Assembly: GCA_965602635.1 (NCBI GenBank)
Contig: CBFCZU010000001.1
Coordinates: forward strand, 3,522 to 67,521
DNA from: an uncultured Planctomycetales bacterium
GTDB taxonomy: Bacteria > Planctomycetota > Phycisphaerae > SM23-33
DNA length: 64,000 nt
Reading direction: 5' to 3'
Shown here piece after piece: positions 16,391 to 36,352 of this stretch. How positions within the stretch are numbered: position 1 is the stretch's first letter; every line of letters starts with the position of its first letter. The notes beneath the pieces were generated by a model. The model saw nothing but the letters and a program-made list of their open reading frames with translations. It made no database searches and had not been told where the DNA came from. Both the position numbers and the translations under genes were made by a program.

Positions 16391-16565
16391 CCGGCAGGCG
16401 GGGTGCATTAAGGTTTTGGGGGTACTGACCGCGGTGGCACACCTGCCTGCCGGTCAGGCAGGGGTTTCCAACCTGTGCGCCTGGACAGCCGGGCGCGTGC
16501 ACAGGCTACAAGCCTGTGCCACCAGAGCCCCATCCCCAAAACCTTAATGCACCCCCGGCAGGCGG
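16391..16565. mobile_element. MITE-like element: 11-bp direct repeats (ccggcaggcgg) flanking 21-22 bp terminal inverted repeats (gggtgcattaaggttttgggg) around a ~110-bp hairpin-rich core
   Basis: Seen directly: left DR 16391-16401 and left TIR 16402-16422; right TIR 16534-16554 and right DR 16555-16565. Internal perfect hairpins include CAGGCTacaaAGCCTG and cctgcctg…caggcagg. Confidence 0.55.
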
Positions 16566-16599
16566 TTTGGGCTTGCCTCGGGCGGCGTCCTGGGGGACA

Positions 16600-18333
16600 A
16601 TGTCTGTGAGGGAAAGAGGGCCGGGAATGTCCGCGCGACCTGACAGGAAGAGGCGTGCCAAACGAGGCCCGTCGCGCGTCCAGGCCGCCCTTCGACGGGC
16701 CCGCGTGCGTTGGGGGCTGAACCTGTTGCTCCAACACGCGGCCGTGGGTCTGCTGGCGGCCGGGCTGGCGGTCGCCTTGGCCGTCGCGGCCGAGCGGACG
16801 ATGGCCGTCACCGTCGTGAACCTCTGGACGGCCGCCGCCCTTGGCGGGGCGGTCGTCCTGGCCACCGTGGGGTGGTGGTATCTGACCTTTCCCAGCCGGA
16901 TGCGCGTCGCCGTGATGGTCGATGAGCGCCTGGGCCTGCGCGAGCGATTCAGCACAACCCTGGCATTTGCCGGCAGCGCCGACCCGTTCGCCGAGGCGGC
17001 CCGGTCCGAGGCCCGGGGGAAGGCGGCCCGCCTCCGGCTGCGGGAGCGGTTCCCGATACGCCTGTCGCGCCGGTGGGCGCTGACGGCCACGGCGTGGGCG
17101 ATCGCCGCGGCGGTCATCGCCTTCCTGCCGACGATGGACCTGCTGGGCAGCCTGGCGCAGCGACTCCGCCAGGAGCAGCGGCAGACCCAGCTCTCCGAGG
17201 CCCGCGCCGAGGTCCGCCAAGCGGCCCAGGCCGTCCAGGCGAAGGTCGGCGAGCTGGGCGACGCCGAACTCACTGAGGACCTGGCGGGCCTGGAACGGAT
17301 CGAGGCCGCCCAGGGCAGCGACGTCCGCCGCCAGGCCATCCGCAAGCTCGGCGATCTCTCCGAGCTGCTCAAGAAGAAGCTCTCCGCCGATGAGCTGGCG
17401 GCGACCCATGCAATGCGGCAGATGCTCAAGGGCCTGCGCGGCTCCCGCGAGGCGCTGTCCCGCGAGCTGAGCAGGGCCCTTGCCAAGGGAGACTTCGCCG
17501 CCGCGGCCGAGATGGTCAAACAGCTCCAGAAGAAGCTCGCCGAAGGCAAGCTGTCTGACCAGGAGGCCCAGGCCATGGCCAAGCAGTTGGCCGATCTCGG
17601 CAAGCAGCTTGACGACTTGGCCGAGAAGCAGAAGGAGGCCGAGAAGCTCCTCGAGCAGGAGGGGCTGGACAAGAAGCTCGCGAAGATGGGCCAGAAGGAC
17701 TTGCGGCAGGCGCTCAAGGACAAGGGGCTCAGCGACGAGGAGATCGAGAAGCTGATGCGCAAACTCGCCGCCTGCAAGGCTGCCTGTGAGAACTGCCGCG
17801 GCCTGGCCGAGGCCCTCGCCGGGGCGGGCGAGGGCATGACGCTGACGCCCGAGGAGCTCGCCGAGCTGCTCGACCGGCTCGAGGAGCTTGATGCGGTCGC
17901 CGGCAAGCTGGAGGCGGCCCAGGACTCGCTGGAGGAGATCGAGCGTGCAATCGCACTGCTGGGCGAGGGCGACTGCGAGGGGGGGGGGGCCGGCGACTGG
18001 CGGCCGGGGCTGGCTCTGGTGCAGGGCCGGGGCACCGGCGGGCCCGGCCGAGGGGCCGGTCCTCGCAAGGAGGACCCCAGCGGCCTGACGGGCACGAAGG
18101 CGACTCGCAGCCCCTCCCAGACCGGCAAGGGCAAGATCATCGCCGCCTCGTACTTCAAAGGCCGGCAGGTCAAGGGGGAGTCGAAGAAGGACTTCGCCAG
18201 GGTCGCCCAGGCAGCCAGGGACCGGGCCGCCGACGCCATCGACGAGAACAAGATTCCCCGGAAGTACGCCCCGGCCGTGAAGGACTATTTCGACAAGTTC
18301 AATAGGTCCGGCGGCCGAGAGAAGCCGCAGTGA
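16600..18333 (+). CDS. membrane-anchored coiled-coil protein, unknown function
   Basis: Two N-terminal TM helices, then a long Ala/Glu/Lys/Leu-rich coiled-coil (…KQLADLGKQLDDLAEKQKEAEKLLEQE…) and a Gly-rich C-terminal region. Start moved from the ORF-track 16516 to ATG 16600 because the upstream part overlaps the MITE. Confidence 0.5.
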   Translation: MSVRERGPGMSARPDRKRRAKRGPSRVQAALRRARVRWGLNLLLQHAAVGLLAAGLAVALAVAAERTMAVTVVNLWTAAALGGAVVLATVGWWYLTFPSRMRVAVMVDERLGLRERFSTTLAFAGSADPFAEAARSEARGKAARLRLRERFPIRLSRRWALTATAWAIAAAVIAFLPTMDLLGSLAQRLRQEQRQTQLSEARAEVRQAAQAVQAKVGELGDAELTEDLAGLERIEAAQGSDVRRQAIRKLGDLSELLKKKLSADELAATHAMRQMLKGLRGSREALSRELSRALAKGDFAAAAEMVKQLQKKLAEGKLSDQEAQAMAKQLADLGKQLDDLAEKQKEAEKLLEQEGLDKKLAKMGQKDLRQALKDKGLSDEEIEKLMRKLAACKAACENCRGLAEALAGAGEGMTLTPEELAELLDRLEELDAVAGKLEAAQDSLEEIERAIALLGEGDCEGGGAGDWRPGLALVQGRGTGGPGRGAGPRKEDPSGLTGTKATRSPSQTGKGKIIAASYFKGRQVKGESKKDFARVAQAARDRAADAIDENKIPRKYAPAVKDYFDKFNRSGGREKPQ

Positions 18334-18383
18334 CACCCCAGGCCCGCCCTGCCGGGCCCAGCCATCCGCCGGAGGTCCGATCA

Positions 18384-19391
18384 ATGAGATTACCGGCATT
18401 ACTGGCGTGTCTGCTGGCAGCGGGGGCCGTCTCCTGCGGCGGCAAGGACAAGGACCGGGACCGGCAGGTGGTGCTTTACTGCTCCGTGGATCAGGCGATC
18501 GCCGAGCCGATCGTCGCCGAGTTCGAGAAGCGCACGGGCATCGAAGTGCTTGCCCGCTACGACACCGAGCAGAGCAAGACGGTGGGGCTGGTGGCGAAGA
18601 TCCGGGCCGAGGCCGGCAGTCCCGCCGCCGACGTGTTCTGGTCCAACGAGGTCTTCCACACCGTCCGTCTTGCCGGCGAGGGGCTGCTGGCCCGGTACGA
18701 CGGCGAGGGTGTCCGCGACTGGCCCCGGCGGTTCGCCGACCCGAAGGGGCGCTGGCACGGGTTCGCCCTGCGTTGGCGTGTGATCGGCTATCACACCGCC
18801 CGTGTCTCGGCCGACGATGCCCCCAAGAGCCTTGAGGAATTGCGCGACCCGCGGTGGAAGGGGAATATCGCCATGGCCCGACCGGCGTTCGGCACCACCG
18901 GCGGCGACGTGGCCAGTTGGTTCGCCCGCTACGGCCCGGAGCAGGCCCGGGAGATCCTTCGCTCGCTCAAGGCCAACGGCGTGCGCATGGTTGACGGCAA
19001 CAGCACGGCCGTGCGCATGGTCGCCACCGGCCAGGCGCTCGTCTGCATGACCGACACCGACGACGTGTACGCCGCCCAGCGCAGGGGCTGGCCCGTCGCC
19101 ATGAACCCGCTCGACCAGGGCGGGCGCGGCGCCCTGTCGATCCCCAACACCGCCGCCCTCGTAAAGGGCGGGCCGAACCCGGCAACCGCCCGCGAGCTGA
19201 TGGCCTTCCTGCTGAGCGAGGACGTCGAGGAGATGCTCGCCGCCAGCGATTCGCACAACATGCCCATCCGCCCCGCGCTGGCCAAGCGCTTCGCCGCCTA
19301 CGCCGTCGGCAAGACGCTGGACATGAGCTACGAGCGGGTGGCCGAAGAGCTGCCCCGGGCCATCCGCGAAGCCGGGGAGATCCTCCCCTGA
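18384..19391 (+). CDS. ABC transporter periplasmic substrate-binding lipoprotein, Fe(III)-type (FbpA/AfuA-like)
   Basis: Lipoprotein signal MRLPALLACLLAAGAVSCGG; FbpA-like N-lobe …VVLYCSVDQAIAEPIVAEFEKRTGIEV…ADVFWSNEV…. Confidence 0.7.
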   Translation: MRLPALLACLLAAGAVSCGGKDKDRDRQVVLYCSVDQAIAEPIVAEFEKRTGIEVLARYDTEQSKTVGLVAKIRAEAGSPAADVFWSNEVFHTVRLAGEGLLARYDGEGVRDWPRRFADPKGRWHGFALRWRVIGYHTARVSADDAPKSLEELRDPRWKGNIAMARPAFGTTGGDVASWFARYGPEQAREILRSLKANGVRMVDGNSTAVRMVATGQALVCMTDTDDVYAAQRRGWPVAMNPLDQGGRGALSIPNTAALVKGGPNPATARELMAFLLSEDVEEMLAASDSHNMPIRPALAKRFAAYAVGKTLDMSYERVAEELPRAIREAGEILP

Positions 19392-19450
19392 TCCGTTCGG
19401 CGTCGCCAGCCCGGCAGCGGCACCTGGGCCCCACGGGCGGCCTGGCGGGA

Positions 19451-21925
19451 ATGCTGCTGGCGGGCGCGGGACTAGCGGGATGGCTGGCGGTGATCGTGGT
19501 CCCGCTGGGGTTCCTGTTCATCTCATCCTTCTCCGGTCCCTCGGCGGGCGCAGCCGCCTGGCCGGTGGGGCGGATCGCCGCCTTGACGGGCCGTTCCTTT
19601 GCCCTGGCCGGGGGAATCGCCGCACTGGCGGTCGTGCTGGGATACCTGCCCGGCAGGTGCCTGGGAACCACCCGCCGACCGGGGTTGATGCTCGCCCTGA
19701 TCCTCGCGCCGCTGCTGCTGCCCCGATACGTCGCGTATTACGCATGGTGGCTGCCGCTGAGCCCGACCACGGCGATCGGCAGGTTCCTGGCCCAGCACGG
19801 CGAGCTGTCGCGGTTCGTCCACGGCGCAACGACCTGGATGGCGCTGGTGCTGTGGTTCTGGCCCCTGGCGGCTCTGCTGATCGGGCAGGGCTGGCGGGGG
19901 ATGGACGAGGAGGTCCTCCAGAGCGCCCGCCTCGAGGCCGGCAAGGCCAGGCGCTTCGCCCGGGTGACCCTGCCGCTGCTGGCGCCCTCGCTGGTGCTGG
20001 CATTCGGAGTGTGCCTGGTGCTGGCGCTGTCGGAGCTGGGGACGTTCGACCTCGCCGGCATCGAGACCCTCGGCACGAAGATCGGGCTGGAGCTGGCGCG
20101 GACCTACCAGTTGACCGGCTCGGCCGCCGCCACTGCCCGGGCGGGCGCGCCGCTGACGGTCGTGGCCCTGGTGGTGGGGATCGCCCTGTCCCGGCGGCTG
20201 CGGGGCGAGTCGGTTCAGCCGCCCGCGGGCCCGCCAAGGGCGCCGCTGCCGGCCGCCGGGCGGGTCGTCGTCGCGCTGCTGGTGGGGCTGTCGGTTCTCG
20301 GGCCGCTGGGACTGCTCGTCGGGCACGTCAGCGAAGCGGGCCCCTACAGGGACTTCTGGCGACTGCACTCCGACGAGGTGGGCTGGTCGCTGATCACCGC
20401 CGCCGCCGCGGCAGGCCTGGCCCTGGTCATCGCGGCGGGTGCGCTGCTCAGCCGTGGCCGGGGGAGACTGGGCAGCTGGCTGTCGGGGGCGGTCTATTCC
20501 ACTATCTTCCTGGCAATGTTCCTGCCCGGGGCGCTGATCGGCATCTCGCTGCTCCGCCTGGCCTCGTCCGCGGGCCTCCCGGCGAGCATCCGCGGCGGGT
20601 GGTACTTCGTCTCGCTCGGGCAGGCGGCGCGGTTCGCCGGGCTGGCCCTCATCGTCCTGCAACTGGCGCGGGACAGCCGCGACAGACACCTGGCGGAGAT
20701 GGCCTCGACTGACGGGGCCTCCGCCGTGCAGCGCTGGCGGTACGTGCACCTTCCGCGTGTCTGGCCGACCGCGGTCGCCGCCTTCGTGCTCGTGGCCATG
20801 TTCAGCATGACGGAGCTTGCCGCCACCATGGTCCTGCTGCCGGCCGGGGTGCCGAACTTCGCCCAGAGCCTGCTCAACCAGATGCACTACCTCCGCGATC
20901 AGCAGGTGATCGCCTCCTGCCTGGCGCTGGTGGGCGTTTACGCGGCGCTGGCGGGGCTGATTGCCGGCCTGGTCTGGCTCATCCGCGCCCGCCCGGGGCG
21001 TCTGGTGGCGGTTGTGGCCCTGGCGGCGCTGGCGGTGGGCGGGTGCGAGTCGAAGCCCTCCGACAAGGGCTCGGCGAAGGTCCTGGGCGTCATCGGCCGC
21101 AGCGGCCCCGGCGACGGCGAGTTCATCTACCCCCGCGCCATCGACCTGGCCGGCGACGGGACAATCTACGTGGCGGACAAGACAGGGCGGATTCAGCGTC
21201 TCAGCCGCGACGGCCGGGCGCTGGCGGTCTTTCGGATGCCGCAGGTCCAGGCCGGCAAGACCACGGGCATCAGCCTCGGGCCCGACGGCAACCTCTACGT
21301 CGCCGACACGCACTACCACCGAGTGGTGGTCTTATCGCCGGCCGGGAAGATCGTCCGCGAGTTCGGCAGCTTCGGCACCGGCGGCGGGCAGTTCGTCTAT
21401 CCGACCGACGTGGCCTTCGCGCCCGACGGGCGCATCTTCGTCAGCGAGTACGGCGGCAACGACCGGGTCAGCGTGTTCACCGCCGCCGGCGAGTTCCTCT
21501 CCAACTTCGGCTCGCGCGGGGGCGGCGCCGGCGAGCTGTCGCGCCCGTCCGCGCTGTGCGTGGACAGCTCGGCGGGGGTGCTCTACGTCGCCGACGCGTG
21601 CAATCATCGCATCGCCCGGTACAATCTTGACGGCCGGTTGCTGGGGTACATGGCCTCGGCCGGGCAGGGGAGGGGTCAACTGCGGTATCCTTACGACCTG
21701 GCGCTGCTGCCCGACGGGCGGCTGCTGGTGTGCGAGTACGGCAACAACCGCATTCAATTGTTCAGCCGGGGCGGCGAGTCGCTGGGCGTCTTCGGCGGAC
21801 CCGGGCGGCGGCTGGGGCAACTGGCATACCCCTGGGCAGTGGCCGCCGACGCCGCCGGCCGCGTGTACGTCGTAGATGCCGGCAACGATCGCGTGCAGAT
21901 ATGGGACAACCTCCGACCATACTGA
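19451..21925 (+). CDS. two-domain ABC permease (FbpB-like) continuous with a C-terminal periplasmic NHL-repeat domain
   Basis: 824-aa single ORF. Residues 1-~518 hold two permease halves, each with an EAA-like loop (…EAGKARRFARVTLPLLAPSL… and …VQRWRYVHLPRVWPTA…). Then comes the basic tail RARPGR, a hydrophobic helix LVAVVALAALAVGG, and six NHL repeats (…YVADKTGRIQRL…, …LYVADTHYHRVVVL…, …IFVSEYGGNDRVSVF…). There is no stop and no ATG between the two parts. If separate, the NHL lipoprotein would need a GTG/CTG start near 21002-21005 and a signal peptide with no positive n-region. Confidence 0.6.
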   Translation: MLLAGAGLAGWLAVIVVPLGFLFISSFSGPSAGAAAWPVGRIAALTGRSFALAGGIAALAVVLGYLPGRCLGTTRRPGLMLALILAPLLLPRYVAYYAWWLPLSPTTAIGRFLAQHGELSRFVHGATTWMALVLWFWPLAALLIGQGWRGMDEEVLQSARLEAGKARRFARVTLPLLAPSLVLAFGVCLVLALSELGTFDLAGIETLGTKIGLELARTYQLTGSAAATARAGAPLTVVALVVGIALSRRLRGESVQPPAGPPRAPLPAAGRVVVALLVGLSVLGPLGLLVGHVSEAGPYRDFWRLHSDEVGWSLITAAAAAGLALVIAAGALLSRGRGRLGSWLSGAVYSTIFLAMFLPGALIGISLLRLASSAGLPASIRGGWYFVSLGQAARFAGLALIVLQLARDSRDRHLAEMASTDGASAVQRWRYVHLPRVWPTAVAAFVLVAMFSMTELAATMVLLPAGVPNFAQSLLNQMHYLRDQQVIASCLALVGVYAALAGLIAGLVWLIRARPGRLVAVVALAALAVGGCESKPSDKGSAKVLGVIGRSGPGDGEFIYPRAIDLAGDGTIYVADKTGRIQRLSRDGRALAVFRMPQVQAGKTTGISLGPDGNLYVADTHYHRVVVLSPAGKIVREFGSFGTGGGQFVYPTDVAFAPDGRIFVSEYGGNDRVSVFTAAGEFLSNFGSRGGGAGELSRPSALCVDSSAGVLYVADACNHRIARYNLDGRLLGYMASAGQGRGQLRYPYDLALLPDGRLLVCEYGNNRIQLFSRGGESLGVFGGPGRRLGQLAYPWAVAADAAGRVYVVDAGNDRVQIWDNLRPY

Positions 21926-21944
21926 AGATGAGCTGGAGTCGCCC

Positions 21945-24914
21945 GTGATCGCCGCGGTGGGATTCCGTTTCGCCCAGCCGTGGTGGCTGCTGGCCTGTGC
22001 GCTGGCGGTGCCGGTGGTCTGGCTGGGCTGGCGCAGCCTCGCCTCGCTCGGCAGGGCGCGGCGCGTCGCGGCCATCGGCCTGCGCGTGCTGGTCATCTGG
22101 CTGCTGGCGGCCCTGCTGGCCAGGCCGATGCTCAGCTCCAAGCACGAGGAGCTGACGCTGATCGCCGTCATCGACCGCAGCCGGTCCATCCCCACCGAGC
22201 CGGTGGACGTGCAGGCGGAGGCGATGGATTACCTGGCCCAGGCCGTCGCGAGCAAGCCCCCGGGCGACCAACTGGCCGTGATCGACGTCGGCGAGCAGGC
22301 CCTGATCGCCCGCCTGCCGTCGGTGAGCACGGAGGTCCCTCAGCGGAACATCTCGCTTCCGGGCGAGCAGAGCGCCCTGGCCGGCGGGGTGGAGCTGGCG
22401 CTGGCCATCGCGCCTCCCGATACGGCCACCAGGATATTGCTGATCAGCGACGGGAACGAGACTGCCGGCGACCTGGCCGGGGCCGCCAGGGTGGCGGCCG
22501 CCAACTCCATCCCCATCGACGTCCTGCCGGTGAGGTACAAGTACGAGCGCGAGGTGGTGTTCCGCCGGCTGGTCGCCCCGTCGCGGGCGCGGAGCGGGCA
22601 GACGGTCGACCTGCGGTTCGTGCTGGCAAGCACGGCCAAGGCACAAGGCCGGCTGACCCTCAGCCTCAACGGCCGGCCCGTGGACCTCGACCCGACCACC
22701 GTCGGCATGGCCGTGCCCGTCACCCTCCAGCCCGGCACCAACGTCAAGACCATCTCCCTGCCGCTGGGGACGCGGGGGATGCACGACTTCGAGGCTATCT
22801 TCATCCCCGACCAGGCCGACCCGCCCTTCGACCGGCTGGCCGCCAACAACCGCGCCGCGGCCATGACCTTCGTCGCCGGGCCCGGCCACGTGCTGGTCGT
22901 GGACGGCGACGGCAAGTCCGGCGCCGACCTGGCCGGCGCCCTGGGCAAGGCCGGAATGGACGTGAGGCACTGCCTGGCGTCGGAGCTGCCCGAGAACCTC
23001 ACCGCCCTGCTGGACGCCGACGCCGTCGTCCTGGTCAACGCCGAGAACAGCTCCTTCACCTTCCGCCAGCAGGAGATGCTCTGCCGGTACGTCGCCGACA
23101 TGGGCGGCGGGCTGGTCATGGTCGGCGGCCCGGAGTCGTTCGGCGCCGGCGGCTGGATCGGCTCGCCCGCCGCCAGAGTCATCCCCGTGGACCTCGACCC
23201 GCCACAGAAGAAGGTCATGCCCAAGGGCGCGCTGGTGCTGATCATGCACGCCTGCGAGATGCCGCAGGGCAACTTCTGGGGCAAGCAGACCGCCATTGCC
23301 GCGGCGAAGAGCCTCAGCCGGCGCGACCTGGTGGGTGTGCTGGATTACGGCTGGCAGGCCGGCGCCCCCAACTGGGTCTATCCGCTCAGCGAGGTCGGAG
23401 ACAAGCAGGCCGTCACCGCCGCCATCCGGAGGATGACCATGGGCGACATGCCGGACTTCGGCCCGCCCATGCAGGTGGCCTACGACAAGCTCAAGGCCTG
23501 CGACGCCGCCCAGAAGCACATCATCATTATCAGCGACGGCGACCCGCAGATGCCCAAGAAGGAGAAGGGTTTGCTCAAGAAGCTGCGCAAGGCCGGCATC
23601 ACCTGCAGCGGGGTGGCGGTGTTTCCGCACGATCCGGGGCACGTGGCCTCGCTGGTGAAGATCGCCCGGGCCACCGGCGGGCGGTTCTACAACGTCAAGG
23701 ACCCCAAGCAGCTTCCGCGGATCTTTATCAAGGAGGCACAGGTCGTCCGCCGGGCGCTGATCGTGGAAGAGAAATTCACCCCCAAGGCGACCGGCAGCAT
23801 GGCGATTCGCGGCCTGCCGCTTCGGTCGCTGCCGGACCTCGACGGGTACGTGCTCACCGGCCCCAAGAAAGGGCTGACGCGCGTGGCGCTTACCTCGGCC
23901 AGGGGCGACCCCCTGCTGGCGACCGGGCAGATGGGCATGGGCCGGGCTGTTGCCTTCACCAGCTCAGCCGACAGCCGCTGGGCCTCGCGCTGGCTGGCAT
24001 GGGGCGGCTTCCAGCGCTTCTGGGAGCAGATCGTCCGCTGGGCAGGCAAGCCCGCACAGGCGTCGGACTGCGAGGTGTACACCGACGTGCACGGGCGCAA
24101 CGTCACCGTCAGCGTCGAGGCGGTCAACGCCGCCGGCGAATTCGTGCAACTGACCGACATCGGCGGGCACGTCATCGCCCCCGACATGTCCAGGAAGGAG
24201 CTGACCGTCAGCCAGGTCGGCCCGGGCTCATACCGGGCCGGCTTCGACGCCGCACAGTTCGGCGGCTTCCTTGTCAGCCTGCGCTACCGCAAGGCCGGGG
24301 CCGACAGTACGTCGCTGATCCAGACCGTGGCCATCGTCCCGTACGCGCCCGAGTTCGAGGACCTAACCGACAATCTGCCCCTGCTCGCCCGGGTGGCGGC
24401 GAGCACGGGCGGGCGAGTTCTCGGGGGCGATCCGAGCAAGGTCAACCTGTTCGATCGGTCGGGGCTGCGCTTCCCCGAGACGCCGCTTCCGCTCACGAGG
24501 CCGCTGATGCTGATCTGGCTGGGGCTGTTCCTGCTGGACGTTGCGGTCCGGCGGGTGGCGTTGGACGTTCGCTCAGCCGCTCGACGGGTGGGGGCGGCGC
24601 TGGGGCGCCTGCGGCCGCGACGCGACGCCGCCGGCCGAACGCTGGCACGGCTCCAGGCCCGGCGACGCCAGGTGCGCGACCGGCTCGTCGCCCGTGGCCG
24701 GAAGGGCGCCGCGGCAAGACGCTACGAGGCGCCCGAGGGCGGCCCCGAGCCGCCGGAGCTTCCCCTGGCCGAGCAGCGGCCGGAGGCGCCGGCCGTCGAG
24801 CAGGGCGAAGCCCAACGCCCAACCGAGCAGCCAGAGGATGAGAGCCACCTGGGCCGGCTGCTACGCGCCAAACGCCAGGCGCGAGATCGCATGAAAAAGG
24901 ACAAGGACAAGTAG
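21945..24914 (+). CDS. large BatA-like membrane protein with VWA domains
   Basis: ~990 aa from GTG 21945 (GGAG RBS 7 nt upstream); the in-frame ATG at 21876 overlaps the previous gene. N-terminal BatA_N-like double-TM (…FRFAQPWWLLACALAVPVVWLGW…); VWA-like blocks (…LIAVIDRSRSI…, …IIIISDGDPQ…); C-terminal TM followed by a basic Arg/Lys tail. Confidence 0.7.
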   Translation: MIAAVGFRFAQPWWLLACALAVPVVWLGWRSLASLGRARRVAAIGLRVLVIWLLAALLARPMLSSKHEELTLIAVIDRSRSIPTEPVDVQAEAMDYLAQAVASKPPGDQLAVIDVGEQALIARLPSVSTEVPQRNISLPGEQSALAGGVELALAIAPPDTATRILLISDGNETAGDLAGAARVAAANSIPIDVLPVRYKYEREVVFRRLVAPSRARSGQTVDLRFVLASTAKAQGRLTLSLNGRPVDLDPTTVGMAVPVTLQPGTNVKTISLPLGTRGMHDFEAIFIPDQADPPFDRLAANNRAAAMTFVAGPGHVLVVDGDGKSGADLAGALGKAGMDVRHCLASELPENLTALLDADAVVLVNAENSSFTFRQQEMLCRYVADMGGGLVMVGGPESFGAGGWIGSPAARVIPVDLDPPQKKVMPKGALVLIMHACEMPQGNFWGKQTAIAAAKSLSRRDLVGVLDYGWQAGAPNWVYPLSEVGDKQAVTAAIRRMTMGDMPDFGPPMQVAYDKLKACDAAQKHIIIISDGDPQMPKKEKGLLKKLRKAGITCSGVAVFPHDPGHVASLVKIARATGGRFYNVKDPKQLPRIFIKEAQVVRRALIVEEKFTPKATGSMAIRGLPLRSLPDLDGYVLTGPKKGLTRVALTSARGDPLLATGQMGMGRAVAFTSSADSRWASRWLAWGGFQRFWEQIVRWAGKPAQASDCEVYTDVHGRNVTVSVEAVNAAGEFVQLTDIGGHVIAPDMSRKELTVSQVGPGSYRAGFDAAQFGGFLVSLRYRKAGADSTSLIQTVAIVPYAPEFEDLTDNLPLLARVAASTGGRVLGGDPSKVNLFDRSGLRFPETPLPLTRPLMLIWLGLFLLDVAVRRVALDVRSAARRVGAALGRLRPRRDAAGRTLARLQARRRQVRDRLVARGRKGAAARRYEAPEGGPEPPELPLAEQRPEAPAVEQGEAQRPTEQPEDESHLGRLLRAKRQARDRMKKDKDK

Positions 24915-24961
24915 TCGCCCACTGACGGCGGCAACGATACGAGCGAAGGAGAAAAGCGGAC

Positions 24962-25987
<1,026 letters not shown>

Positions 25988-26005
25988 GCGACGGGCAAAT
26001 GTCTA

Positions 26006-26920
26006 ATGACGAATGACGGGATCGCGAAAACTCGCAGCCGCCTGACCGAGCTTCTGGATCCGCAATTCATGGCCCGGCTGGACGCGCTGGACATACTCTC
26101 GCGGAAGATCCTTCAGGGCAAGGTCCATGGCGAGCGGCGGAGCAAGCGCCGCGGCCAGAGCGTCGAGTTCGCCGACCACCGCCCGTACGTGGCGGGCGAC
26201 GACCTGCGGTTCGTGGACTGGAACATCTACGCCCGGCTGGACCAGTTGTTCCTCAAGCTCTTCCTGGCCGAGGAGGACCTGACGGTGCACGTGCTGCTCG
26301 ACGCCACGGCCTCGATGGCCGGCGGCGAGCCGCCCAAGAGCCGTGCCGCCAGGCGCCTGGCCGCCGCCCTGAGCTACATCGCACTGGTCAACAACAACCG
26401 CCTCACCGTCAGCACCTTCGCCGACGGGCTGACCGGGCAGATCGCAAACATGCGCGGGCGGGGGTACCTCCACCAGATGGGCGAGTTCCTCCTGGAAGCC
26501 CCGGCCGAGGGGTCCTCCGACTTCGACAGGGCGTGCAGGCAGGTCGCCGCCGGGCGGATCGGCTCGGGGGTGATGATCGTGCTGTCGGACATGCTTCTCA
26601 AGGAAGGCTACGCCGACGGCCTGCGGCGGCTGATGAGCGGCAACTATGACCTGTACGTAATACAGATGCTCAGCCCGCAGGAGCTCTCGCCGGATCTGTC
26701 GGGCGACCTGAGGCTGCTGGACATGGAGGACGCCGACGAGGCGGAGGTGACCGTCAGCGCCGCCCTGCTGAGCTACTACAAGCGGACGGTGTCGGCCTAC
26801 TGCAACGAGCTGAAGGCCTTCTGCTCCCGGCGCGGGGCGGTGTACGTGCTGACCGACTCGGGCAAGCCCGTCGAGCCGCTGGTGCTGAACTACCTCAGGC
26901 GGAGAGGACTGTTGAGATAA
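26006..26920 (+). CDS. DUF58 protein (VWA-like partner of MoxR)
   Basis: 304 aa; DUF58 signature …GERRSKRRGQSVEFADHRPYVAGDDLRFVDWN…. Confidence 0.85.
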   Translation: MTNDGIAKTRSRLTELLDPQFMARLDALDILSRKILQGKVHGERRSKRRGQSVEFADHRPYVAGDDLRFVDWNIYARLDQLFLKLFLAEEDLTVHVLLDATASMAGGEPPKSRAARRLAAALSYIALVNNNRLTVSTFADGLTGQIANMRGRGYLHQMGEFLLEAPAEGSSDFDRACRQVAAGRIGSGVMIVLSDMLLKEGYADGLRRLMSGNYDLYVIQMLSPQELSPDLSGDLRLLDMEDADEAEVTVSAALLSYYKRTVSAYCNELKAFCSRRGAVYVLTDSGKPVEPLVLNYLRRRGLLR

Positions 26921-26985
26921 TGCATGATGACGAATGACCGATGGCCAGGCAGTCGCAGGGCCTGGCCGACAGGTACTGACCGATC

Positions 26986-28974
26986 ATGGAATTTCTTTCG
27001 CCCTGGACAGCTTTGATCGCCGCAGCGGCTGCGGTGCCGCTGTTGGTTCTGCTCTACTTCCTGAAGCTCAAGCGACGGGAGCAGTTGATCACCAGCACGC
27101 TGCTGTGGAAGCGGGCGGTGCAGGACCTCCAGGTCAACGCGCCGTTTCAGCGGCTTCGGCGGAACATCCTGCTGCTGCTGCAACTGCTCGCGATGCTGGC
27201 GGTGCTGCTGGCGCTGGCTGGGCCCGTGTCGCGTTGGATCGCCGGCGGCGGCAGGCGGTACGTGCTGCTGATCGACCGGTCCGGGAGCATGAACGCCGCC
27301 GACGAGCCGCCCCACACCCGGCTGGAGCAGGCCAAGCGCAAAGCCAAGGCGCTTATCGAGTCCCTCCGCAGCCGGCCCGGCCTGGGAATGGACGACCGGT
27401 CAGACCAGGCCATGGTCATCGCCTTCGACGACCATGCCAAGGTGCTGTGCAACTTCACGTCCGACAAGCGGCAGCTCTCGGCGGCGGTGGAGGCCGTCAG
27501 GGCGACCGACGGGGGCTCCTCGCTGGCCGAGGCCGTCGCCGTCGCCAGGGCCTTCGCGACGTCGCCTGGGGAGGATGCGAACAATCGTTCCGCCACCGAG
27601 GCGGCTGAGCTGGTGCTGTTCAGCGACGGAAAGATCCGCGATCTGGACGACGTTGTGGCGGGCCCGGACGAGCTGAAGTTCCACCGCGTGGGCGAGTCGT
27701 CCGACAACGTGGCGGTCGTCGCCATGCAGGCCAGGCGCTCTTACGAGCATCCCGAACAGGTGGCGGTCTTCGCGGGCCTGGCCAACTGCGGCGGCTCGCC
27801 CGTCAACTGCGAGGTGCAACTGAGCGTTGACGGGCACGTCCGGTCGGTCAGGCCGGTGCGCCTGCCCGCCTGGCAGGGCGGCCGCGACAAGCTGGGGCGC
27901 CTGGGCCAGGCATCGGTGAGCTTCTCGTTCTCCCAGCCGGGCTCGGCGACCGTGGAGGTCCGGCTGCTGGCCGACGATCCCCTGCCGGCCGACAACGCAG
28001 CCTGGGCGATCCTGCCCCCGCCAAAGAAGCTCAGCGTGCTGCTGGTCAGCGCGGGCAACCCCGCCCTGGCAGCGGCGCTGGAGTCCTGCTCGCTGGCCGG
28101 GCTCGACGAGGTCACGCCCGAGCAGTTCGACAAGATGGACAGCTCGGCGCTTGCCCTGAAAGAGCGCTACGACGTCATCGTCCTCGACGGGCACGCCGCC
28201 GCCAAGGCCGAGTCCCTGCCGCGGGGGCAGTATCTCGTTTTCGGCCCGCCGCCGCAGGGCATCGGCGTCCAGACCCGGCGCGTGAACGCCGGGCGTGTGA
28301 TCGTTGACTGGCAGCGGCGTCACCCCGTCCTCCAGCACGTGGACCTGGGCGGCCTGTTCGTCTCGGCCTATCAGCGCATGGTGCTTCCCCGCGACGGCCT
28401 GGCGCTGGCGGAGTTCGCCGACGCCCCGGCCGTGGCCATCCTCCGCCGCGGCGGAAGCGTCTTCCTGCTGGCCGGCTTCGACGTGATGGAAACGAACTGG
28501 CCGTTCGAGCCGGGGCTGGTGATGTTCTGCTACAACGCCACCCGCTACCTGGGCATGGAGCTGGTCCAGACGCAGCAGGCGTCGCTGGCGGCGGGCTCGG
28601 CCCTGGCGGTGCGGGCTCCCGCAGGCGATGTCTCGGAAGCGCACCTCACCGGGCCGGGCGGGCTGGACGTGAAGCTGACCCGGGACTCGTCCGGGACGTT
28701 CCGCTACCCCAAGGCCGCCCGGGCGGGCATATACACCCTCGCCGCGGGCAGGGCCGATACTCCGACCATCACCCGGCGGTTCGCCGTGAACTTCCTGAAC
28801 CCCCGCGAGAGCGACATACATCCGGCCAGTGGGCTGGTCCTCTCAGGCCGGGAGGTCCAGGCCGAAACCGCGCCGGCCCGATCCAACCGAGAGCTTTGGC
28901 CCGTGCTGGTGGCAGTGGCCTTGGCGCTTGTGTGCCTGGAGTGGCTCATCTATAATTCAAAGGTCAGAATCTGA
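26986..28974 (+). CDS. BatA-like VWA-domain membrane protein
   Basis: 662 aa; BatA N-terminus MEFLSPWTALIAAAAAVPLLVLLYFLKLKRR; VWA block …YVLLIDRSGSMNAAD…; C-terminal TM. Confidence 0.8.
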   Translation: MEFLSPWTALIAAAAAVPLLVLLYFLKLKRREQLITSTLLWKRAVQDLQVNAPFQRLRRNILLLLQLLAMLAVLLALAGPVSRWIAGGGRRYVLLIDRSGSMNAADEPPHTRLEQAKRKAKALIESLRSRPGLGMDDRSDQAMVIAFDDHAKVLCNFTSDKRQLSAAVEAVRATDGGSSLAEAVAVARAFATSPGEDANNRSATEAAELVLFSDGKIRDLDDVVAGPDELKFHRVGESSDNVAVVAMQARRSYEHPEQVAVFAGLANCGGSPVNCEVQLSVDGHVRSVRPVRLPAWQGGRDKLGRLGQASVSFSFSQPGSATVEVRLLADDPLPADNAAWAILPPPKKLSVLLVSAGNPALAAALESCSLAGLDEVTPEQFDKMDSSALALKERYDVIVLDGHAAAKAESLPRGQYLVFGPPPQGIGVQTRRVNAGRVIVDWQRRHPVLQHVDLGGLFVSAYQRMVLPRDGLALAEFADAPAVAILRRGGSVFLLAGFDVMETNWPFEPGLVMFCYNATRYLGMELVQTQQASLAAGSALAVRAPAGDVSEAHLTGPGGLDVKLTRDSSGTFRYPKAARAGIYTLAAGRADTPTITRRFAVNFLNPRESDIHPASGLVLSGREVQAETAPARSNRELWPVLVAVALALVCLEWLIYNSKVRI

Positions 28975-29005
28975 AGTGCAATCGCGTTTCCTAACGGGTG
29001 TTGAT

Positions 29006-31165
29006 ATGGGGCGACGTTGCCTGTGGATTCTCCTGGCGCTGCTTCTTGGGGCTCTCGCGCTGCCGGCGGTCTCCCTGGCGGCCGAGGAGTTCAACGTCAC
29101 GGTCACCGTGGGCTGGGAGAACTACTATCGGCCCATGGAGTGGACCCCGATAGAGATCAACATTGCCAACAGCAAGCTCAAGAAGCCCTTCGGGGGCACG
29201 CTGTTGGTTTCGGCCCAGCAGGACGGCCTCAACAAGCTGACCGTCGGGCGCGAGTTCGTGCTCACCCGCGATAGCCCCGTGGACTGCGCCATGGTGACCA
29301 AGTTCACGTACGGGGTCGCCGATTGCCTGGTGCGGATTCTCAACGCTGGTGGGCGGACGTCCTGGTCCACTGACTTCAGCTTGATGGATTTTTCCAAAGG
29401 CGTCGAGCTGGTGCCGGTGGACGACGACGCGCTGCTTATCGGCGTGGCGGGGAGGATATCCTCCAGCCTGCTGCGCCTGGGAGGCAACAGCGCCTGCGAG
29501 CACGGGAGCGAGCGAGGGAAGGTCCACGTCAAGCGAAAGGTCCTTAACCGCCTGCCCCACGACTGGACCGGCTATGCCGGGCTTGACCTTCTCGTCCTGT
29601 ACGACCCGGACTGGGACACCCTCTCCGTTCACCAGAGCCGGGCGATCGCCCTATGGGTCACCAACGGCGGGAGGCTGCTGATCGTCCTGGGCACGCGTCC
29701 GCTGCCTGCTTCGGGCCCGATAGCGGGGCTGGTCCCGTTCCGCCCGGGTCCGCTGCGGCAGATCAAGATACCCGCTTCCGCCCTGAGCGCGTGGGGCTTC
29801 GGGCGGGCAGTTGCCAACGCCGGCGCGGAAGTGAGCTGCTGGCCCCTCGACGGCGCCGCCAAGGCCGGATGGACCGCCGACGGCGGGAAGAGCAGCTTCT
29901 TTGCTTACGGGCCGGTCGCCTTCGGCAAAGTGGCCGTGCTGGGCTTCGACCCGTACCTGCTTGTCCGGCGAACCGGCCGACCGGCCACGACCGGCAGGCC
30001 GTACCTGGGCGTCCAGCCGGCACGGGCGGCGTCAGAGCTGGCCAGGTTCTGGACGGCGCAGCTCCGACACGTCCTGGGCCCCCGTCAGATCGGCCATCAG
30101 TCAGGCGGGTGGCGCGGAGACCCGGGCTACGGCTACTATGGTGGTTTCGAGCTTGGCCGCGTCGGGCGGGGCTCCAACGCCGTCGTGGGACACCTCATGA
30201 GCATCCCGGAGATGCGCCCGTTGAGCATCTGGTGGGTGATACTCCTGCTGGCCCTGCTGGCGGTGCTGCTGGGGCCGGTGGACTACATCGTCCTGAAGCG
30301 CCTGGGCAAGCTGCCGCTCACGTGGATCACATCGACGGCCCTGATCGCCCTGTTCTCGGTTGGGGCATACTACGGCGTCCAGGCCCTCCGCGCCGGGACG
30401 ATGAAGGTCCGGGTGGTATCGGTCATCGACGCGGTGGAAGGGTCCAAAGCCGTCTGGTCCACGCAGTACGCGGGCATCTTCGCCCCGGCCAGCAAGAACT
30501 ACGGCCTCAGCGGCACCCGCCCCAACGAGTGGTGGTCCGGCATAACCGCGTCCAGGGACGAGCGCTCCTTCTACCGCCCGCGCGAAATCGCCACGAGGCA
30601 AATCTCCTGTCTCCAGGAGGACGGAGGCAACAGGCCCGCGTCCCTGCCCATCAACATATGGACCATGCAGTGCCTGTTGACCGAATCGCCCGAGGAGAAG
30701 CCGCCCTTCTCGGCCAGCGTGGAGCGGGCCGGAGGCGACCTGAAGGTCAGCATCGTCAATCACTCTGACGTTCCCATCCGCAGGGGCTACGTCCGAATGG
30801 ACGGGGATCAGAAGATGGAGTTCGGGTCCGTTGACGCGGGCGGCAAGAAGGCACACCAGGGCCGGCTGTCTCGCGCCAGGGCCTGGGACGACTGCCTCTC
30901 CAGCAGCGAAACCTACGTGACGGGCTATCCGAACGGGCGGGAGGCGTTTCCCTATTTCGAGACCGACTCGGCCTACTTCGCCAGGGGCAGCCTCCGACGG
31001 ACCGGCGCCATCCAGGAATACCTGCGCCGCGGCGCGGCGGTGGTGTGCGTGGAATACCGCGAGGCGCCCGTCTCCTTCGGCGTGGCCGGAAGAACGTGCG
31101 AGTACCACCACGTCCGGTTGGCGAGGATGGTGGTCTTTCCCAAGAGATTAGCCCGCTTGCCGTAG
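29006..31165 (+). CDS. secreted/membrane protein of unknown function (two extracytoplasmic domains around a central TM pair)
   Basis: 719 aa from ATG 29006 (ORF-track start is 28829). Signal peptide MGRRCLWILLALLLGALALPAVSLA; central TM hairpin (…LSIWWVILLLALLAVLLGPV…LIALFSVGAYYGV…); sits between the Bat/MoxR genes and the ABC-2 exporter. Confidence 0.5.
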   Translation: MGRRCLWILLALLLGALALPAVSLAAEEFNVTVTVGWENYYRPMEWTPIEINIANSKLKKPFGGTLLVSAQQDGLNKLTVGREFVLTRDSPVDCAMVTKFTYGVADCLVRILNAGGRTSWSTDFSLMDFSKGVELVPVDDDALLIGVAGRISSSLLRLGGNSACEHGSERGKVHVKRKVLNRLPHDWTGYAGLDLLVLYDPDWDTLSVHQSRAIALWVTNGGRLLIVLGTRPLPASGPIAGLVPFRPGPLRQIKIPASALSAWGFGRAVANAGAEVSCWPLDGAAKAGWTADGGKSSFFAYGPVAFGKVAVLGFDPYLLVRRTGRPATTGRPYLGVQPARAASELARFWTAQLRHVLGPRQIGHQSGGWRGDPGYGYYGGFELGRVGRGSNAVVGHLMSIPEMRPLSIWWVILLLALLAVLLGPVDYIVLKRLGKLPLTWITSTALIALFSVGAYYGVQALRAGTMKVRVVSVIDAVEGSKAVWSTQYAGIFAPASKNYGLSGTRPNEWWSGITASRDERSFYRPREIATRQISCLQEDGGNRPASLPINIWTMQCLLTESPEEKPPFSASVERAGGDLKVSIVNHSDVPIRRGYVRMDGDQKMEFGSVDAGGKKAHQGRLSRARAWDDCLSSSETYVTGYPNGREAFPYFETDSAYFARGSLRRTGAIQEYLRRGAAVVCVEYREAPVSFGVAGRTCEYHHVRLARMVVFPKRLARLP

Positions 31166-31202
31166 GACTGCGTTCGACGGGCGGGCAGCGAGGAGCCGGA
31201 GA

Positions 31203-32129
31203 ATGATTCAGACCAAGGGCTTGACCAAGTACTACGGCACGCTTGGGGCACTTGTGGACCTGGACCTGAACATCGAGGGGGGTGAGATCTTCGGGTACAT
31301 AGGCCCCAACGGCGCGGGCAAGACCACCACCATGCGAATCCTGGCGACGCTGCTGGAGCCCACCAGCGGCACGGCCACCATCGACGGCAAGCTGGTCACC
31401 CGGGAGGGCAAGCGCGTCCGCAAGGTCGTCGGATACATGCCCGACTTCATGGGCGTGTACGACGACCTGAAGGTCTTCGAGTACCTGGAGTTCTTTGCCG
31501 CGGCCTTTGGCGTGCACCGCTCCAAGCGCAGGGGTGTCGTCGAGGGTGTGCTGGAGCTGACCGACTTGCAGTCCAAGGCCGCATTCAGGGTGGATAGCCT
31601 CTCACGCGGCATGCAGCAGCGACTGGGGCTGGCGCGGGTGCTCATCCACGACCCCAAGGTGCTGATCCTGGACGAGCCGGCCAGCGGGCTGGACCCCCGG
31701 GCGAGAATCGAAATCCGCGAGCTGCTCCGCGAGCTGAAGCGCATGGGCAAGACCATCATGATCTCCAGCCACATACTCAGCGAGCTGGAGGAAATGTGCG
31801 ACCGGGTGGGGATCATCGAGCAGGGCAAGATGGTCTTCAGCGGCACGCTGGACGACGTTCGCGAGCGCATGGGAGTTCATCGCAAGGTCCGCCTGCGTGT
31901 GGCCGGGGACGAGGAAAAGGCGGTCAAGCTCCTCTCGGCCCTGCCGGCGGTCGAGTCGGTCGAACGCCTCGAGGACGCCATCTTGGTGACCCTGGGCGAC
32001 AGCGGCGCCGAGGCGGGCCTCATCGCCCGGACGCTGGTCCAGGGCGGCGTGGCCGTGGCTGAACTGGTGCCCGAGAAGCTCAAACTGGACGAGGCATTCC
32101 TGCAACTGACAGAAGGGCTGGTGCACTAG
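31203..32129 (+). CDS. ABC transporter ATP-binding protein (ABC-2 exporter type)
   Basis: 308 aa; Walker A GPNGAGKTT, ABC signature LSRGMQQRLGLA, Walker B LILDEP. Confidence 0.9.
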   Translation: MIQTKGLTKYYGTLGALVDLDLNIEGGEIFGYIGPNGAGKTTTMRILATLLEPTSGTATIDGKLVTREGKRVRKVVGYMPDFMGVYDDLKVFEYLEFFAAAFGVHRSKRRGVVEGVLELTDLQSKAAFRVDSLSRGMQQRLGLARVLIHDPKVLILDEPASGLDPRARIEIRELLRELKRMGKTIMISSHILSELEEMCDRVGIIEQGKMVFSGTLDDVRERMGVHRKVRLRVAGDEEKAVKLLSALPAVESVERLEDAILVTLGDSGAEAGLIARTLVQGGVAVAELVPEKLKLDEAFLQLTEGLVH

Positions 32130-32132
32130 CCC

Positions 32133-32313
32133 GGATGTTGCACGATGCGCGTGCAACATCCGCCCCGCGGGCTTCGACGCGAGCGACTTACGTCGCTCTT
32201 GCTCGGGGCCAGCCTTGAGCGAGGCGCGAAGCGCCGAGTCGAAACCTTTGCGAGAGAACCGTCTCTCGCAAAGGCGCTTATTGCATAGACCCGGAAGGGG
32301 TCATGCAATAAGC
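32133..32313 (+). repeat. cluster of perfect hairpins in the ABC ATPase-permease spacer
   Basis: Seen directly: a 12-bp stem at 32133-32161 (ggatgttgcacg/cgtgcaacatcc); GAGCGAC/GTCGCTC at ~32181-32199; a 12-bp stem at 32246-32273 (ctttgcgagaga/tctctcgcaaag); and a nested 11+5 bp stem at 32276-32313 (gcttattgcat…gaccc ggaa ggggtc…atgcaataagc). Confidence 0.6.
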
Positions 32314-32346
32314 AGACTAGCGCTGCGGCGCTGGTCTGGTGGAAAC

Positions 32347-34128: not shown

Positions 34129-34216
34129 CGGCCGCGCCTCCCTCATTTGCCCTTTCGGGCCTTGCCTGCTGCGCTTCCCTCGATTACAAGCCGGGGGCCG
34201 CGGTTCATGAACGCTG

Positions 34217-36351: not shown

Positions 36352-36352
36352 G

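Follow-up and report, generated by a model that had tools for sequence, protein, structure and literature searches.

A predicted permease-lipoprotein polyprotein with an internal lipobox, encoded in a MoxR/VWA gene cluster of Phycisphaerae

The fused reading frame and its conservation

The DNA considered here is a 64,000-nucleotide stretch (the window) of contig CBFCZU010000001.1, from an uncultured Planctomycetales bacterium of the class Phycisphaerae; the genes of the cluster described below all lie on its forward (+) strand. The gene in question is an uninterrupted open reading frame (ORF) at 19451..21925, encoding an 824-residue protein in which a 12-helix, FbpB-like double permease of the ATP-binding cassette (ABC) type is followed by a 13th helix and a six-bladed NHL beta-propeller. 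It stands between a gene for a solute-binding protein (SBP) and a group of Bat/MoxR-type genes, and the questions addressed are whether the fusion is real, how its product is processed and to what system it belongs. Pfam recognizes two stretches of BPD_transp_1 (41.4 bits, cut-off 26.4) and four of NHL (113.9 bits, cut-off 20), and an AlphaFold2 model computed from an alignment of 120 sequences (mean predicted local distance difference test, pLDDT, 86.9) consists of a helical membrane bundle followed by 24 strands arranged as six blades of four. These results, together with the homologues, bear out the sequence-only reading of this DNA, made by a model, according to which the permease ORF reads without a stop into a six-blade NHL domain.

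A search of 5.8 billion proteins yielded 265 matches, 120 of which were listed and aligned. The listed homologues, all from assemblies assigned to Planctomycetota, Phycisphaerae or Sedimentisphaerales, are 791-866 residues long and cover 92-100% of the query at 51-88% identity (99% in one case), and each of the 120 is encoded in a single stop-free frame. Scanning one genome per GTDB species revealed at least 541 candidate stretches encoding a relative; the best 80 loci were fetched, together with one locus obtained separately, and both halves share one stop-free frame in all 81, at locus GC contents of 39-72.5%. The same build, lipobox included, is retained in distant fused relatives whose permease identity is only 28-34%.

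Long stop-free runs are not rare near 70% GC, where a random extension of 300 codons stays open with a probability of about 3e-3, compared with 1e-9 to 1e-6 at 40-50% GC, and the fusion might accordingly be an artefact of this GC-rich window, caused by a lost stop, a sequencing error or a pseudogene peculiar to it. That explanation retains practically no probability, being ruled out by an independently assembled protein that is 99% identical to the one in the window (P0001), by 119 further fused homologues, by the 81 fused loci spanning the above range of GC content and by the distant fused relatives. Because the frame is open in 120 homologues and in 81 loci down to 39% GC, the fusion is, as judged by its conservation, genuine and under selection rather than a chance read-through in GC-rich DNA. 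The homologues carry the database names “6-bladed beta-propeller”, “ABC transporter permease subunit” or “hypothetical” and, in JGI, “ABC-type Fe3+ transport system permease”; the family is thus already deposited under generic names and appears to be unstudied, and a literature search found no paper on an NHL-permease fusion. In one protein of 749 residues (P0140), the C-terminal half of an SBP is apparently fused to the permease, which is probably a frameshift or gene-call artefact and could be another fusion variant.

Residues 1-511 (19451..20983) comprise a predicted type I ABC importer permease with two BPD_transp_1 domains in one chain and 12 transmembrane (TM) helices, both ends of which are on the cytoplasmic side. 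Each half contains an EAA coupling loop (residues 145-175, 19883-19975, and residues 406-433, 20666-20749), both rich in K/R and cytoplasmic by the charge map; in the 120 sequences, A159, L161, A163 and T173-L174-P175 of the first loop and E416-M417-A418 and D421-G422-A423 of the second are conserved in at least 90% or are invariant. Foldseek matches the membrane part to FbpB in the cryo-EM structure of Thermus FbpBC (9j4r_A; E 7e-13, TM-score 0.77 on the target, 24% identity), and with its conserved EAA loops and this fold match the permease looks functional. The highest conservation in the whole protein is found in the periplasmic loop between TM11 and TM12 (residues 462-487, 20834..20911; LLPAGVPNFAQSLLNQMHYLRDQQVI; consensus LLPAGxPNFAQxLLNQMHYxRDQQVI), in which L462, L463, P464, G466, the entire run N476 Q477 M478 H479 Y480, and V486 are invariant in the 120 sequences. 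This loop could be a docking surface for the SBP or the propeller, or a ligand site.

The propeller (residues 532-824, 21044..21925; Pfam NHL 1.2e-33), predicted to be a mature lipoprotein starting at Cys532, is identified as a six-bladed NHL domain both by its repeat profile and by its fold: its 24 modelled strands have pLDDT values mostly above 90, its sequence matches the TRIM71/Thin NHL structures in the PDB at 6e-44 and PknD of M. tuberculosis (1RWI) at 3e-9, and Foldseek aligns it with the NHL domains of Thin, TRIM71 and TRIM2 at a TM-score of about 0.9. The conserved propeller residues mostly belong to the canonical NHL repeat motif. The protein does not qualify as a member of the NCBIfam family ScyF (146.5 bits against a cut-off of 350), and its C-terminus (...VQIWDNLRPY) shows no PEP-CTERM tail. 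According to hydropathy and the positive-inside rule, the N-terminus, the EAA loops and the RARPGR loop that follows helix 12 are cytoplasmic, helix 13 crosses the membrane from inside to outside, and Cys532 lies at the periplasmic surface of the membrane, with the propeller in the periplasm.

The junction

The segment joining the two halves (20984..21046) was described in the sequence-only reading as the basic tail RARPGR followed by a hydrophobic helix, a description that is exact as to the sequence and incomplete as to its content, since a lipobox Cys is invariant in all 180 unique junctions compared. To judge from its sequence, the junction is an internal signal peptide of type II (the lipoprotein type) with all its parts: the n-region RARPGR (20984-21001) is followed by LVAVVALAALAVGG (21002-21043), which contains the h-region LVAVVALAALA, and by Cys532 (TGC, 21044-21046), which closes the lipobox A-V-G-G-C. 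The protein accordingly reads RARPGR-LVAVVALAALAVGG-C532-ES, and there is no stop in the underlying DNA (CGC GCC CGC CCG GGG CGT / CTG GTG GCG GTT GTG GCC CTG GCG GCG CTG GCG GTG GGC GGG TGC GAG). The 13th hydrophobic segment covers residues 516-534, and the preceding loop (residues 505-515) is rich in K/R, hence cytoplasmic. The predicted signal peptidase II site lies between G531 and C532 (21043|21044), and the tryptic peptide across this junction is LVAVVALAALAVGGCESKPSDK.

Among the 180 junctions, of which 179 were scored by a script and one by eye, position -1 is G in at least 178, position -2 is T in 79, A in 46, S in 23 and G in 15 (T/A/S in 148), and position -3 is L in 103 and V, A, I or M in the others. 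The 120-sequence alignment singles out the same site, with conservation of 0.99 at G531 and 1.00 at C532, the other columns from 515 to 545 being at 0.19-0.62 save P542 (0.75) and V544 (0.88), where the propeller enters its first strand. An Arg is found at 509, 512 and 514 in 82-92% of these sequences, not a single charged residue occurs in columns 518-532, and the mean length of the h-region is 16.3 residues (uncharged stretch of about 14-16). With AVGG-C, the window protein was scored as conforming to the lipobox pattern [LVI][ASTVI][GAS]-C, and its positive n-region and uncharged h-region, within the range of 7-22 residues, are likewise those of a lipoprotein. The departure is one of position: lipoprotein signal peptides are treated as strictly N-terminal in textbooks and by all predictors, whereas here 511 residues and 12 TM helices precede the signal. 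In the AlphaFold2 model, pLDDT is 57-59 in helix 13 and below 50 at residues 530-539; because confidence is low there and high for both domains, helix 13 does not look integral to the permease fold, and the model fits a loosely attached segment.

A separate start for the NHL protein had already been considered unlikely, and the comparison agrees. Under this alternative, the NHL lipoprotein would be made mainly by internal initiation at the in-frame GTG codons 21005 or 21014, with a weak G-rich stretch upstream, and the fusion would be a minor by-product; relatives in which the NHL gene is separate do show that the protein can function when made alone. However, neither a start codon nor any Met or Val is conserved at the junction columns of the homologue and locus alignments, a signal peptide beginning at 21005 would have no positive n-region, and an open frame would not be selected for in about 200 sequences down to 39% GC if the junction were not translated. 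Internal initiation is therefore very improbable as the main source of the protein.

The lipobox Cys is followed by Asp in 105 of 179 NHL junctions and by Glu in the window (21044-21049). The E. coli rule that equates Asp at +2 with retention in the inner membrane was considered and is not used here as evidence for the NHL protein, because the SBP lipoproteins of the cluster have K, R, G or S at +2 (18435-18440 in the window) and because the rule is not established for Planctomycetota. The difference at +2 between the NHL junctions and the SBP lipoproteins may reflect different sorting.

Split relatives

When the permease part alone was searched, without a profile, against 1.84 billion cluster representatives, the best matches included both proteins of ~810-880 residues and proteins of ~500-575 residues, and inspection of their genomic context identified the short ones as real split genes (L082, L083/L084, L085, L089 and L091). 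The question of whether the orthologues are fused or split, raised in the sequence-only reading, thus has a double answer: the 120 listed homologues and the 81 loci are fused, and five relatives have a clear stop and a separate gene for an NHL lipoprotein, the arrangement that the sequence-only reading had named as grounds for rejecting its view. The NHL gene is adjacent to the permease gene in all five, and the hydrophobic stretch and lipobox are found at or near the N-terminus of its product or after a called or possible N-terminal extension. In L083/L084, the permease stop overlaps the ATG of a 358-residue NHL gene (ATGA). A gap of 226 bp follows the permease in L082, where the NHL protein begins MTGLLRTSCSARAAAVLSAALATVATCGC, and one of 88 bp in L085, where its N-terminal region reads ...AAVLLVAAVALAGGC, also given as ...LLVAAVALAGGC; the separate NHL proteins of L091 and L089 begin MRAFALGLPVMLLMAGC and MRLTLLLIPAICLVAC, respectively. 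For L083 (11620-11800), the called NHL start leaves about 60 residues before the hydrophobic stretch and lipobox (...FVAFALLPGC), and the real start may be further downstream.

What corresponds to Cys532 in these relatives is the lipobox Cys of their free NHL proteins. The split forms are a minority, and a neighbour-joining tree built from the permease parts scatters them as sisters of different fused forms, from which it follows that, as far as this tree goes, fission or fusion occurred repeatedly. Such interleaving is expected if the product is cut anyway, so that fusion or fission changes little.

Processing of the product

The reading that we favour, and that appears rather probable from these comparisons, is that the gene encodes a permease-lipoprotein polyprotein that receives a lipid at Cys532 and is probably cleaved by signal peptidase II, and that forms a module within a MoxR/VWA envelope system whose partner ATPase is encoded elsewhere. 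The 12 helices would insert with both ends inside, leaving the Arg-rich loop in the cytoplasm, and the 13th hydrophobic segment would then insert in the in-to-out orientation and export the propeller. Lgt would attach diacylglycerol to Cys532 and LspA (signal peptidase II) would cleave between Gly531 and Cys532, steps that are suggested because a mere anchor would give no cause for a lipobox to be conserved. Two products are predicted, a permease of 531 residues, in which the former signal peptide remains as a 13th helix with a loose attachment, and a propeller of 293 residues anchored by its lipid on the periplasmic face of the inner membrane, and co-translation would supply the propeller 1:1 right beside the permease. 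With less support, the propeller and the lipoprotein SBP might work with the permease from the periplasm, where the invariant LLNQMHY loop may serve them as a docking site, and the propeller might capture, process or hand over a ligand which, because the binding pocket of the SBP is acidic, would be other than classical Tyr-bound Fe3+.

Helix 13 might instead be an uncleaved signal-anchor by which the propeller stays covalently attached to the permease as a periplasmic receptor or docking domain. This is compatible with the topology, there are known ABC importers whose permease carries a fused extracytoplasmic domain (PMC7731109), and retention of the fusion in the 120 listed proteins and the 81 loci suggests that the covalent link is selected. 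A lipobox would be superfluous in a mere anchor, however, and the combination of L at -3, T/A/S at -2 and G-C is kept while the rest of the helix drifts; moreover, the Cys corresponds to the lipobox Cys of free-standing lipoproteins in the split relatives, and repeated fission shows that the link is dispensable. A permanent tether is therefore possible and, on balance, unlikely. The suggestion in the sequence-only reading that the permease may carry its own periplasmic receptor or docking domain stands as regards the periplasmic location of the propeller; it is the permanent carriage that fares less well, since the lipobox implies probable release as a separate lipoprotein.

Several points weigh against the polyprotein reading. 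Lipidation and cleavage are both predictions from sequence. No description of an internal lipoprotein signal peptide following a polytopic domain was found in the searchable literature, so that it is an assumption that LspA can reach a signal peptide which a loop of 11 residues ties to 12 helices. All 80 best-matching loci of the scan and the separately fetched one are fused, and this prevalence hints that the covalent link itself is advantageous, as a neutral fusion would predict commoner split forms. The case for the functional role of the propeller is weaker than that for its processing, gene context being its sole basis. Finally, no importer-class ATPase (FbpC/PotA/CysA-like) adjoins the SBP and permease genes in 91 related loci (1.39 Mb) and none is present in the window, which leaves the transport activity of the permease unproven.

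The MoxR/VWA cluster

The fused gene is part of a cluster of 10-11 genes that extends over ~17.6 kb (16516-34128) on one strand with short gaps. It opens with a gene for a 605-residue protein (up605, 16516..18333, true start uncertain) with two predicted TM helices and a long coiled coil rich in E/K/A/Q, followed by the SBP gene, the permease-NHL gene and a gene for a large membrane protein in which Pfam identifies two VWA domains and one GATase1_like (DUF1355) domain (Bat1012, 21876..24914). Next come a MoxR-type AAA+ ATPase (24962..25987), whose orthologues carry bpMoxR, AAA_3, AAA_5 and AAA_lid_2, its DUF58 partner (26006..26920; Pfam 4.5e-29), a membrane protein with BatA-N and VWA domains (26986..28974; Pfam BatA 6e-13, VWA_2 5.5e-18) and a 778-residue protein of no known family (p778, 28829..31165, start uncertain), and the cluster closes with an ATPase and a permease of the ABC-2 type. 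No credible Pfam or NCBIfam family was found for up605 or p778, relaxed thresholds included. If its first ATG is used, the Bat1012 ORF shares 50 nt with the end of the NHL gene; orthologues suggest a start near 21945, some 20 nt past the NHL stop, a spacing that would allow translational coupling. A scan of 15500-35400 for promoters and terminators gave counts equal to the shuffled expectation.

This order is kept in the 81 loci as far as the contigs reach, the downstream ABC-2 part being missing in a few, and fused relatives with 29-35% identity (L087 and L088) share it, as do split ones (L083, L089 and L091). In essentially all loci of sufficient length, an up605 orthologue (tblastn, 36-52% identity) lies directly upstream of the SBP gene in the same orientation, the Bat1012 gene is always the next one after the NHL stop in loci extending past it, distant and split relatives included, and the syntenic MoxR genes encode proteins with identities of 68-80% in the main loci and 57-79% in the distant and split ones. 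The DUF58 and BatA genes are syntenic as well, and so is p778, at 33-45% identity over full-length matches. In L089 (1095-6747) and L091 (8001-17587), the permease, the separate NHL lipoprotein and the ~1000-residue VWA protein are retained and the adjacent SBP is absent, so the SBP is not an obligate neighbour of the permease and NHL genes; L091 also shows MoxR, DUF58 and BatA, and the L089 contig ends within MoxR. Small unrelated genes are inserted between MoxR and DUF58 in L087 (16722-17147; 23S_rRNA_IVP family) and L088 (11687-12139; PDDEXK_3), with the remaining order intact.

With MoxR AAA+, DUF58 and BatA-N/VWA proteins encoded together on one strand, the cluster is of the Bat/MoxR-VWA type. 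Because synteny is kept even in distant and split relatives, the permease-propeller pair is, by the evidence of gene order, an integral part of a Bat/MoxR-type system and not a mere neighbour. The sequence-only reading assigned the next gene to a Bat/MoxR cluster, correctly as to that gene; the boundary it implied disappears, as the SBP and the fused gene are strictly syntenic with the cluster.

The solute-binding protein

The SBP gene (18384..19391; ORF 18330..19391, with the likely start at ATG 18384, MRLPALLACLLAAGAVSC...) encodes a lipoprotein with an FbpA/HitA-like fold (Pfam SBP_bac_6/11/8/1) and an N-terminal lipobox of its own (AVSC, Cys18); an xSC lipobox is present in 72 of 72 orthologues. 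Its best matches in the PDB are Thermus FbpA (3WAE/4ELO, 8e-27) and HitA (1e-24). In the HitA/hFbpA class, His9 and Glu57 are iron ligands. In pairwise alignments, the His of the HitA “NGQH” motif, which we take to be the iron-ligand His, falls on D36 of the SBP, and D226/D227, which are invariant across the 72 orthologues, are aligned both with Tyr219/Tyr220 of TtFbpA and with the NNYY of HitA. The adjacent Tyr-Tyr iron ligands of FbpA are Tyr195/196 in VmFbpA and Tyr219/220 in TtFbpA (PMC10804667). The SBP thus has the class II fold and FbpA/HitA similarity and lacks the Tyr-Tyr pair, as well as the ligand His of HitA, and the label “Fe(III)-type” of the sequence-only reading is good for the fold and not for the iron ligands. 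Invariant or nearly so in the orthologues are D36, E89, R130, R132, G170-T171-T172, N206, D224, D226, D227, I253-P-N-T256 and H291: an acidic pocket (D36, E89, D224, D226, D227) with R130/R132 and the GTT loop replaces the Tyr/His iron ligands. Such a pocket looks suited to a cation or zwitterion rather than to Tyr-bound Fe3+.

The system might nevertheless be an ordinary ferric importer of the FbpABC/HitABC kind with its ATPase gene elsewhere, adjacent to Bat/MoxR genes by coincidence. Ferric-binding proteins are the closest solved relatives of the SBP, the permease fold matches Thermus FbpB, and the JGI name of the homologues points the same way. Against this, the ligand tyrosines (for their role, see PMC10804667) are replaced by invariant Asp226/Asp227 and the position of the “NGQH” His by Asp36, and the top NCBIfam matches of the SBP, far below cut-off, are 2-aminoethylphosphonate binders. 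Furthermore, synteny with the VWA, MoxR, DUF58 and BatA genes persists down to 29-35% identity, some lineages hold the permease, NHL and Bat genes without an adjacent SBP, and the module has no adjoining importer-class ATPase in any of the 91 loci. Taken together, these observations make an ordinary ferric importer improbable.

The ATPase

The sequence-only reading reported no ATPase gene nearby and no cognate ATPase in the window. Taken literally the former does not hold, since an ABC ATPase is encoded at 31203..32129, 9.3 kb downstream of NHL (Pfam ABC_tran 5e-29); as regards an importer-class partner both do. The enzyme is DrrA/GldA/ABCA-like, of the ABC-2 exporter class, with NCBIfam scores of 241.7 bits for drrA and 236.5 bits for GldA, both below cut-off, and with the nucleotide-binding domains (NBDs) of ABCA3, ABCA4 and ABCA1, 1VPL and NosF as its nearest PDB entries. 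Its presumed partner is the double ABC-2 type permease encoded at 32215..34128 (Pfam ABC2_membrane_2 1.5e-11 and ABC2_membrane_4, two stretches), and the two are, by family assignment, an exporter-class pair, whereas a different kind of partner would be expected for a type I importer permease. Of the 48 loci long enough to include it, 44 have the ATPase gene at a fixed distance of 9.0-9.8 kb downstream of the NHL stop. Neither tblastn with this ATPase nor a scan for signature motifs detected a second NBD in the 64-kb window, the single hit being 31203-32126, and the 91 loci have no NBD beside the SBP or the permease, with four sporadic, non-syntenic NBD matches 5.6-12 kb upstream. Because the EAA loops are conserved, a partner ATPase is expected, and on these sequence data it must be encoded elsewhere or shared.

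Comparison with known systems

The window system combines known kinds of components, namely the membrane domain of an ABC importer, a lipoprotein and a polyprotein. With the FbpABC/HitABC/SfuABC importers (Thermus thermophilus FbpA 3WAE/4ELO, FbpBC 9J4R) it shares the fold family of the SBP (E 8e-27) and a single-chain permease with two BPD_transp_1 halves, 12 TM helices, EAA loops and a structural match to FbpB; it differs in an SBP devoid of the Tyr-Tyr and His ligands, in having no adjacent FbpC-type ATPase, in the addition of a 13th helix, lipobox and NHL propeller, and in its location inside a MoxR/VWA cluster. In importers such as OpuA/OpuABC and GlnPQ, the reading frame of the membrane domain likewise includes an extracytoplasmic domain that an extra hydrophobic segment exports; in the window, however, the fused domain is an NHL propeller, the SBP is a separate lipoprotein gene, and the connector is a predicted complete lipoprotein signal peptide with an invariant lipobox. 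The nearest precedent for the junction may be FbcH of Bradyrhizobium japonicum, the cytochrome b-c1 precursor, which is reportedly cleaved at an internal signal peptide of type I (Thony-Meyer et al., about 1989-1991). There too, a single ORF encodes a polytopic membrane protein and, behind an internal signal peptide, a periplasmic domain, and the precursor is reported to yield two subunits of one complex; the FbcH site is of type I (leader peptidase), whereas the window has a type II lipobox, which would imply Lgt and LspA.

A working model for a propeller beside a permease and an SBP is offered by AztD, which is presumably a beta-propeller as well and which is an accessory periplasmic protein encoded with an ABC importer. 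It is soluble, non-NHL, non-lipidated and unfused, whereas the window protein has a fused NHL domain that is predicted to be lipidated. AztD is the periplasmic metallochaperone of the zinc importer AztABCD of Paracoccus denitrificans and hands its ligand directly to the SBP (PMC7731109). PknD (1RWI) and ScyF likewise hold a six-bladed NHL propeller outside the cytoplasmic membrane on a single hydrophobic segment; the window protein has neither a kinase nor a PEP-CTERM, and its anchor is a lipobox.

The Bat/MoxR-DUF58-VWA clusters of Bacteroides, Leptospira and Borrelia (PMC3557215, PMC5700661) also encode MoxR AAA+, DUF58 and BatA-N/VWA proteins on one strand, and the function of the Bat (Bacteroides aerotolerance) clusters is described as still not established in PMC3557215. 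In contrast to them, the version found here always adds the permease and the NHL lipoprotein and usually the SBP, as well as the ~1000-residue double-VWA/GATase1_like protein, the coiled-coil membrane protein and usually an ABC-2 exporter pair; no TPR genes of the BatC/BatE type were detected. The Bat/MoxR-VWA clusters thereby gain a testable set of partners (an SBP with an acidic pocket, an ABC-type membrane domain and a periplasmic propeller), which may help to reveal the role of these widespread clusters in the cell envelope.

The stronger combined claim can be advanced only tentatively: that this is the first natural internal type II signal peptide, by which a 12-helix protein and a lipoprotein would arise from one precursor through Lgt and LspA, and that the permease and propeller are obligate components of a near-universal MoxR/VWA machine of Phycisphaerae with no importer ATPase in the cluster. 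If it is true, the conserved lipobox that follows 12 TM helices in hundreds of species shows that Lgt and LspA can act on an internal signal and that bacteria make polyproteins of a membrane protein and a lipoprotein. Such genes are at present mis-annotated under generic names. The predicted internal lipoprotein processing is unusual and easily tested.

Directly after the cluster, at 34217-38116, lie genes for AnmK (anhydro-MurNAc kinase, 358 bits), a SIS/GKRP-like protein that is possibly a MurQ-type etherase, and a sodium:solute symporter, a trio that is likely to function in cell-wall sugar recycling.

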